Of a DNA stretch of 64,000 nt, positions 18,026-18,151 are shown in pieces. Source of the DNA: Vicinamibacterales bacterium (GTDB lineage Bacteria; Acidobacteriota; Vicinamibacteria; Vicinamibacterales; SCN-69-37); the NCBI GenBank assembly GCA_035279905.1, contig DATEGZ010000200.1, positions 1 through 64,000 of the forward strand. The letters are read 5' to 3'. The notes under the pieces are model-generated. The model was not told where the DNA came from and did not search any database. It saw nothing but the letters and a program-made list of their open reading frames with translations. The translations under genes were made by a program, and so were the position numbers. Position 1 is the first letter of the stretch; the number at the start of each line of letters is the position of its first letter.

Positions 18026-18151
18026 GATCAACTTAGAACTTAGAACTTAGAACTTAGAACTTCGAACTCAGAACTGCAGAGCATCACGCGGGTCCTCCCC
18101 CAGTTCTAAGTTCTAAGTTTTAAGTTCTAAGTTTTAAGTTCTAAGTTGATC
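18026..18151. repeat. Family-1 tandem-heptamer hairpin element (AACTTAG arrays), copy A
   Basis: Left arm GATCAACTTAGAACTTAGAACTTAGAACTTAGAACTTCGAACTCAGAACTG. Right arm CAGTTCTAAGTTCTAAGTTTTAAGTTCTAAGTTTTAAGTTCTAAGTTGATC. Perfect terminal inverted repeats GATCAACTTAGAAC. It fills the gap between convergent stop codons at 18019 and 18155. Confidence 0.85.

Follow-up and report, generated by a model that had tools for sequence, protein, structure and literature searches.

In several bacterial phyla, many gene ends are accompanied by paired tandem arrays of short units on opposite strands, which together can form hairpins; at least two reports have noted them, one on Geobacter (2009) and one on Xanthomonas (2015). 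Xanthomonas genomes contain ∼186 GGGAATC arrays each, with 70–75 convergent pairs that could fold into stem-loops (Rehm et al. 2015, PMC4692102); the arrays lie at a mean distance of 28 nucleotides (nt) from the upstream open reading frame, are seldom found between divergent genes, are for the most part transcribed, and occupy the same gene pairs in two species with varying length and sequence (PMC4692102). Geobacter metallireducens has three classes of opposite-strand paired sites, with 3–5 tandem units of 7, 8, or 9 nt (Aklujkar et al. 2009, PMC2700814). In many bacteria, the heptamer is the most frequent unit among long simple repeats (Mrazek et al. 2007, as summarized in PMC4679880 and PMC4692102), and the passages on such repeats in PMC4679880 and PMC4692102 also name heptamer arrays of cyanobacteria and the TAACTGA arrays of Beggiatoaceae. 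Our literature search found nothing on repeats of this kind in Acidobacteria or Vicinamibacteria. Here we analyze three AT-rich hairpin elements built from AACTTAG arrays (copies A, B, and C; Table 1) in a 64,000-nt stretch of a Vicinamibacterales genome (Acidobacteriota; assembly GCA_035279905.1, contig DATEGZ010000200.1, positions 1 to 64,000), which is referred to as the window throughout. The evidence supports well that these copies are one family of ∼100–125-bp near-perfect palindromes from soil Vicinamibacterales, and that the family belongs to the class already described, namely inverted pairs of 7–9-nt tandem arrays by gene 3′ ends.

A pattern scan, Tandem Repeats Finder (TRF), an inverted-repeat analysis, and RNA folding all recovered the three elements where the original prediction, made from the sequence alone, had placed them. 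Copy A consists, in order, of GATC, 7 AACTTAG-type heptamers (18030–18075), a GC-rich apex (18077–18100), 7 complementary heptamers (18102–18147), and a second GATC. All three copies are near-palindromes of 97–126 bp, with AACTTAG units in the 5′ arm and CTAAGTT units in the 3′ arm. A 14-mer of two units, searched with up to 2 mismatches, gave 27 matches, all of them within copies A–C, compared with 0.01 expected from shuffled sequence. TRF resolved period-7 arrays of 6.6+6.6 units in A, 5.0+5.0 in B, and 4.7+4.7 in C, and the inverted-repeat arms measure 51 nt (92% complementary), 37 nt (89%), and 43 nt (86%), respectively. Folding either strand of any copy produces a single long hairpin. The energies on the plus and minus strands are −74.5 and −70.8 kcal/mol for A, −47.5 and −48.5 kcal/mol for B, and −70.5 and −63.5 kcal/mol for C, with z-scores between −9.7 and −13.6 over both strands of the three copies (−13.6 on the plus and −11.3 on the minus strand of A). 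The GC fraction is 0.39 in A, 0.36 in B, and 0.40 in C, and 0.28–0.35 in the arms of A, compared with 0.676 for the window. Stop codons are present in all frames on both strands within the elements.

The copies share a common descent. B and C have right arms that match in full over 38 nt, as had been predicted, and the identity extends through the odd variant unit TGAAGTT, which argues that these are inherited copies rather than independent products of slippage. The apices, which had been thought to differ between copies, also have sequence in common: A and B share CAGAG[C/G]ATCACGCGG, and the apex consensus of the family is a degenerate palindrome, CAGAGGATCACG|CGTGATCCTCTG. The predicted common terminal inverted repeats hold in part, since copy A has GATC at both ends, but copy B is without the left GATC and copy C has GATT instead. 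A search for further copies outside the window with the GATC end plus two units retrieved 12 soil metagenome contigs with a GC fraction of 0.60–0.69; 8 of the 12 carry full hairpins, several with the same apex and GATC ends, and orthologous hairpins were found in relatives as well. One-armed arrays with the same ends occur in L120, L123, L125, L128, and L137 (L numbers denote the contigs or loci compared with the window). Taken over these copies, the layout of the family, which we regard as well supported, is GGATC, 5–7 heptamers of the form AA[C/G]TT plus 2 bases, a palindromic GC-rich apex, the complementary heptamers, and GATCC. The apex was also considered as a separate binding site and rejected: its 20-nt consensus matched no site elsewhere in the window within 3 mismatches, copies A–C themselves being too degenerate to match.

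The hairpins are not an artefact of assembly, because the window sequence is 100% identical to an independent contig of the European Nucleotide Archive and the orthologous hairpin is identical in build in three independent assemblies of one relative (L131–133). Short-read unitigs end inside the hairpin arms.

The position of the elements is linked to gene 3′ ends. Copies A and B each fill the space that separates two convergent stop codons, as the coordinates of the flanking stops confirm. The left-arm array of copy B supplies the last four codons (K-L-K-T) and the TAG stop (31307–31309) of the thiamine pyrophosphate (TPP) enzyme gene on one side, and the TAG of the minus-strand ABC-transporter gene on the other side (31388–31390) shares the last base of the element. 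Copy C starts 7 nt past the TAG of a DUF4139 gene (46298–46300) and ends 52 nt ahead of the start of a PadR gene (46468). With the other hairpins counted (Table 1), the window holds four unit families and eight full hairpins in 64 kb. All eight start within 10 nt of the upstream stop codon or overlap it, a small sample from one window, and five of them fill a convergent gap; between divergent genes there is no full hairpin in the window, only one solo arm.

To describe how the gene ends are occupied in other genomes, we refer to the positions of the three copies as sites A, B, and C. Site B, where the TPP gene faces the ABC gene, has a full hairpin in the window, in L131–133, and in L134, with shared ends and an apex that is almost unchanged (∼75–79% protein identity to the window for L131–134). 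At the same site, L137 has a one-armed array and L138 a remnant of two units, from which the TAG comes; no array is present in L135, L139, and L140, in which synteny differs. Two TPP orthologues, P0002 and P0006, have the C-terminal sequence …KFEVRS, as encoded by (AAGTTCG)n. The array at the end of the TPP gene therefore predates the split of these lineages, and the stop codon donated by copy B, which had been taken as an argument for insertion, loses its force because the orthologous genes end in a heptamer array as well. The Vicinamibacterales metagenome-assembled genome SMAG_U11776 has a different palindrome family, starting GCGTAGGGCGGATT, GTAG-tagged and REP-like (REP, repetitive extragenic palindrome), at L115:858–943 and L093:6198–6268; the L115 copy lies at the 3′ end of the ABC-gene orthologue, where the window has copy B.

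Site C, ahead of the PadR gene, has a hairpin in the window, L191 (93% identity), L192 (94%), L193 (79%), and L131. Occupied gene ends are thus kept across relatives 6–25% apart in flanking protein sequence. Just upstream of the PadR start, at ∼46442–46462, lies an ATACGTC-N7-GACGTAT inverted repeat, probably the PadR operator, which is kept in L131, L191, L192, and L193 whereas the hairpin beside it varies. Site A differs in that a whole segment (18020–19290), comprising the hairpin and a 340-aa gene, is missing between a 193-aa gene and an ankyrin-repeat gene in L131, L135, and L137. The segment is a lineage-specific insertion, or was lost in the others. The 340-aa gene is on the minus strand and has a weak Peptidase_M10 match. 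In the comparison of empty and filled sites that the original prediction had suggested, sites B and C are occupied or hold a remnant in all syntenic relatives, and site A is absent in three, but the adjacent gene is absent there too.

The arms change in sequence between relatives while they remain complementary. The 5′ arm is of the AACTT type in the window, in L191, and in the contigs ascertained by the pattern, and of the AAGTT type in L131–134, L137, L192, and L193; in both cases the 3′ arm is the complement. When ten copies are aligned, the AA and TT positions are almost invariant and the centre and spacer bases vary, with five unit-centre pairs being C-G in six sequences and G-C in four. 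Pairing is retained in 93.1% of the alignment cells. Cells changed on both sides number 25, compared with 10.2±2.2 in shuffled alignments (none of 500 reached 25) and at most 5 in slid controls. The flip of the centre pairs separates the window from L192, only 6–7% apart in flanking protein. In the L191 copy, a mosaic at the level of single units, one unit, AAGCCAG, is unflipped; its core is not palindromic, and the same unit is common to L193 and L137. Inversion of a whole arm between GATC sites was considered as the mechanism of the flip and rejected, given that GATC occurs 713 times in 64 kb and that the L191 mosaic contains an unflipped unit. A unit-by-unit mechanism is suggested instead by the quasi-palindromic AASTT core. 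This core is self-complementary except for its centre base, which would make the arms both inverted and near-direct repeats of each other and permit C-G to G-C flips one unit at a time. The centre pair could then be swapped if conversion in the direct register were followed by correction templated on the hairpin, or by selection that favors pairing.

Two further processes are visible in the comparison. First, the paralogues in the window are 87–91% identical, whereas window and L131 orthologues are 73–75% identical; the dispersed copies have thus been homogenized within the genome, probably by gene conversion. Second, the number of units varies. It ranges over 5–7 per arm among copies, and the 8-mer hairpin at 38182–38306 has 5.6/4.6 units here compared with 3.6/4.6 in the 93% relative L191. 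A one-directional CAGGCAC/AGGCACT array upstream of the DUF4139 gene (44759–44779) has 3 copies in the window, and the orthologous site has 7.3 copies in L192 (94%; L192:132–182) and 3.7 in both L191:9940–9965 and L135:21036–21061. The near-identical strains L131–133 show no change in unit number; polymorphism at the strain level was accordingly dropped as a candidate, the three assemblies having an identical TPP protein and hairpins that are the same but for one base. That arrays gain and lose units by replication slippage is partly shown by these comparisons.

Hairpins of like build but with other units share the position of the AACTTAG family (Table 1). The 8-mer hairpin at 38182–38306 lies between a LytTR response-regulator gene (+) and a 648-aa gene (−); it is found at the same site in the 93% relative (L191:3358–3450) and is absent from the 79% relative (L193). 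The second hairpin of this unit family, at 49466–49543, is flanked by genes of the same direction, and the solo arm at 33231–33270 is located in a divergent intergenic region. The mini hairpin at 40259–40280 may be the seed form of the 8-mer family. Its neighbors are two tandem paralogous genes of 648 aa (38306–40252 and 40282–42228), the first of which is without a Pfam match, as the 648-aa counterparts in relatives are without a precomputed Pfam hit; L131, L137, and L193 have one such gene and L191 has two. The hairpin at 52325–52471 has nine G-U pairs on the plus strand and folds with −93.7 kcal/mol on this strand compared with −78.1 kcal/mol on the other, the strongest strand asymmetry in the window (15.6 kcal/mol, plus favored). 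The non-tandem palindrome at 12647–12745 contains nested GTAGTTTTACGC motifs and fills another convergent gene gap, showing long hairpins to be a general feature of convergent gene ends here. L131 has a 9-mer unit-array hairpin, NNCATGAAG / CTTCANGNN, between same-direction genes at L131:768–846. Hence, unit-array hairpins of several families are not confined to the source genome of the window. An automatic survey of intergenic hairpins in high-GC loci, in which whole spacers were folded, was too noisy for quantitative use and was set aside.

Table 1. Location and build of the heptamer elements and of the other unit arrays and palindromes in the window.
Feature	Position	Strand	Build and setting
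Copy A	18026–18151	.	between convergent stops, TAG 18017–18019 (+) and TGA 18155–18157 (−)
Copy B	31292–31388	.	5 heptamers per arm; apex CAGAGGATCACGCGGTCATTCCG; right end GATC
Copy C	46308–46415	.	∼5 heptamers per arm; apex with its own small palindrome
Non-tandem palindrome	12647–12745	.	43-nt arms, 93% complementary; −71.3 kcal/mol, z −13.5
Solo left arm, GGTTCCGG family	33231–33270	+	4.4 units; family left flank ATCCTTGTGGTTCC; no partner arm
8-mer hairpin GGTTCCGG / CCGGAACC	38182–38306	.	5.6 + 4.6 units; −96.3 kcal/mol
Mini hairpin GGTTCCGAGGTTCCCCGGAACC (GGTTCC)	40259–40280	.	one unit per arm; between two paralogous 648-aa genes
Second GGTTCCGG-family hairpin	49466–49543	.	2 nt past the stop of a MacB-like gene, ∼70 nt ahead of the next gene
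9-mer hairpin CAGGTACGA / TCGTACCTG	51381–51526	.	3 nt past the stop of a PMT_2 gene; −73 kcal/mol
8-mer hairpin TGGGTCAT / ATGGCCCA	52325–52471	.	fills convergent gap; stops 52317–52319 (+) and 52472–52474 (−, PPK2 gene)

Our preferred explanation, to which we assign an even chance of being correct, is that the elements act as REP-like, strand-symmetric RNA hairpins at gene 3′ ends. The role at the transcript level is a prediction. The element would be transcribed as the 3′ tail of whichever neighboring gene reads into it, and because it is palindromic, the same long RNA hairpin would form from either strand. Such a hairpin could mark and insulate the 3′ end, hinder read-through into the convergent gene, and stop 3′-to-5′ exonucleases. 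This role would be set in a stretch of genome in which terminators of the hairpin-plus-U-tract type are no more frequent than chance: terminator-like sites in 40 kb number 7 and 10, compared with 9.2 and 9.8 expected from shuffles, and a consensus scan placed none of them at the hairpin elements. Either hairpin-templated (quasipalindrome) correction or selection, or the two together, would maintain the complementarity of the arms.

The original prediction had gone further and proposed that the functional form is the plus-strand RNA, on the grounds that all arm mismatches in copy A are G opposite T. Two of the four mismatches are of this kind, but the other two are C-T and C-A, the latter favoring the minus strand. 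The gap in folding energy between the strands of copy A is ∼2–4 of ∼72 kcal/mol, copy B folds slightly better on the minus strand, and the eight hairpins of the window are mixed, so the plus-strand proposal is not supported. We also computed the strand preference from G-U pairs for the eight window hairpins and 15 others. At same-direction sites the sense strand is favored in three of three cases in the AACTTAG family, two of the three being orthologous, and in neither of the two cases from other unit families; at convergent sites the favored strand is mixed, as with the TGGGTCAT hairpin (plus) and the 12647 palindrome (minus). Judged by G-U pairs, an orientation-specific RNA is therefore not supported.

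Several observations count against a role as a 3′-end RNA hairpin. The asymmetry of G-U over A-C pairs that is expected under selection at the RNA level is inconsistent across sites. No run of T/U follows any of copies A–C, which are thus not canonical intrinsic terminators. The hairpin is dispensable at the site B gene end, where it is reduced to one arm in L137 and a remnant in L138 and is absent in L135, L139, and L140, where synteny differs. Furthermore, templated correction can by itself produce compensatory changes in a palindrome, with no need for selection. The scans for promoters and canonical terminators called neither in the AT-rich arms, and Rfam 15 gave no match at or above the gathering score anywhere in the window.

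An alternative that we consider rather unlikely is that the elements are a neutral by-product, that is, slippage arrays and template-switch palindromes that survive where they are harmless, just after stop codons. Heptamer arrays are abundant. At least 115 genome stretches, spread over many phyla, contain the exact 19-mer AACTTAG array, mostly in one direction and among other heptamer arrays. The one-directional arrays often lie directly upstream of start codons, including those of ribosomal-protein genes (e.g., L019, L028, and L030), and their neighbors are often related units such as AACGTAG, AACCTAG, AGCTTAG, and CACTTAG. Within ∼955 kb of loci with AACTTAG arrays, there are 307 arrays of period 7, made from 133 heptamer units, compared with 39, 35, and 34 of periods 6, 8, and 9. 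In viral contigs the AACTTAG array has 10 hits, compared with 5, 18, and 15 for three control heptamer arrays of the same composition. Because these counts are no higher than those of the controls, the wide spread reflects the known general excess of heptamers, and a deeply conserved AACTTAG motif was rejected in favor of a generic background of heptamer repeats. The loss or halving of the site B hairpin in L137 and L138, the mixed strand asymmetry, and the Xanthomonas study, which found no regulatory role (PMC4692102), all fit neutrality too. What a neutral origin does not predict is that gene ends stay occupied across relatives 6–25% apart, that the elements abut the stop codons on both sides more tightly than tolerance would require, and that apex and ends are conserved across loci and metagenomes, as in a discrete element rather than the outcome of independent slippage.

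A broader proposal, which we regard as quite improbable as a whole, is that a general, sequence-independent process builds and maintains unit-array palindromes at gene 3′ ends in Vicinamibacterales and perhaps in many bacteria. Seed hairpins, with a single 7–9-nt unit in each arm, would lengthen through duplications coupled between the arms, the direct and inverted homology of quasi-palindromic units would together cause them to flip, and copies would be homogenized genome-wide. The periodic arms might be read by a trans-acting factor dedicated to them, be it a nuclease, a recombinase, or an RNA-binding protein, and the whole would amount to a distinct 3′-end punctuation system.

It is very unlikely, in our estimate, that the family is a non-autonomous mobile element of the REPIN type or of the MITE type (miniature inverted-repeat transposable element), moved by a transposase encoded elsewhere, which would recognize the hairpin or its GGATC ends and insert preferentially at gene 3′ ends or at hairpins already present. 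Such an origin would account for the inverted-repeat-like ends, the relatedness by descent, and the conserved apex, for copies within the genome being closer than orthologous copies, and for the location of copy A at the edge of the lineage-specific segment 18020–19290; stops in all frames on both strands would make insertion into gene tails tolerable. However, ∼10 copies are without a target-site duplication, so that, as the original prediction held, a MITE derived from an insertion sequence is not demonstrable. Neither was a clean empty site found, B and C being occupied or remnant in syntenic relatives, and the L191 mosaic with its unflipped AAGCCAG (also in L193 and L137) indicates change in place rather than replacement. 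Inverted ends follow trivially from a palindrome. The GATC ends themselves are weak evidence, as GATC occurs once per 90 bp in the genome, and Pfam gave no transposase match in the ten flanking genes scanned.

We attach equally little probability to DNA-level binding arrays, in which 7-bp-spaced AANTT cores between converging transcription units would be bound by a nucleoid-associated or topology-handling protein (IHF/HU-like, IHF being integration host factor, or gyrase as at REP) or by a dedicated regulator, since the almost invariant AA and TT positions with variable centres and spacers, the AT-rich arms in a GC-rich genome, the one-armed arrays with the same ends, and the global-regulator or IHF/HU binding proposed by the Geobacter authors (PMC2700814) are outweighed by the other, GC-rich and unrelated unit families (GGTTCCGG, TGGGTCAT, and CAGGTACGA) of the same build and position, a class that a single binder cannot explain, by a 7-bp spacing out of phase with the DNA helix, and by the fact that no candidate protein was found.

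The observation stands and deserves a note, but the system is not of a new kind. Its value is that the Acidobacterial family is a tractable case, having discrete ends and apex, the same gene ends in graded relatives, and full, one-armed, remnant, and flipped states; this graded series allows structure to be separated from sequence, and selection from templated correction. If the preferred 3′-end role is true, and the hairpins are working terminators or 3′-end stabilizers in high-GC soil bacteria without U-tract terminators, operon prediction and expression design would be improved. If they are functionless, they provide a clear natural example of slippage and palindrome correction shaping intergenic DNA.

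Compared with known repeats, the elements resemble REP sequences, bacterial interspersed mosaic elements (BIMEs), and REPINs in being dispersed extragenic palindromes that lie at gene 3′ ends or between convergently transcribed genes, with predicted hairpin transcripts, and 3′ protection, termination, and topology are roles ascribed to REP. They differ from these in length (97–126 nt rather than 20–40 nt), in their GGATC ends instead of a GTAG or CGTC tag, and in their tandem heptamers, REP sequences having no tandem units and being mobilized by RAYTs (REP-associated tyrosine transposases). No GTAG or CGTC tag is conserved across the copies, and no RAYT Pfam match was found in the ten flanking genes scanned in the 64-kb window; length and the missing tag thus agree with the original prediction that these are not classical REP/BIME elements. 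A bidirectional intrinsic terminator is similar in that one symmetric hairpin between convergent genes could act on transcripts from both sides, but the elements have no A/U-tract flanks, their stems are 37–51 nt instead of 5–15 bp, and they have an AT-rich base with only the apex being GC-rich. They share with simple-sequence repeats (5–11 nt) the head-to-tail units, the location in non-coding DNA, the predominance of heptamers, and a copy number that varies between relatives; most of those repeats are one-directional and often upstream of start codons, whereas the arrays described here are two-armed palindromes at 3′ ends.

The closest matches are the two systems with inverted arrays, and they contradict the view that the architecture is unlike anything known: inverted tandem-heptamer pairs occur in Xanthomonas (PMC4692102), and pairs of 7–9-base units in Geobacter metallireducens (PMC2700814). 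The Geobacter sites likewise comprise several families of 7–9-nt units that are mostly paired on opposite strands and are lineage-specific, and they are present at tens of loci, to which the eight full hairpins in 64 kb may be comparable in density; they differ in that they are read as sites for a global regulator or IHF/HU, that the distance between pairs is variable, that they are not described as flush with stop codons, and that the units are unrelated. The Xanthomonas arrays have the tandem 7-nt units on opposite strands, the stem-loop, the intergenic position near the upstream 3′ end, and the rarity between divergent genes in common with ours. Their units, however, are G-rich and were studied as formers of G-quadruplexes, whereas the units here are AT-rich with an AASTT core. 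Three features are without precedent in these systems: an element of discrete form, delimited by GGATC and having an apex that is itself palindromic; a unit that is quasi-palindromic; and the flip and concerted evolution across orthologous sites.

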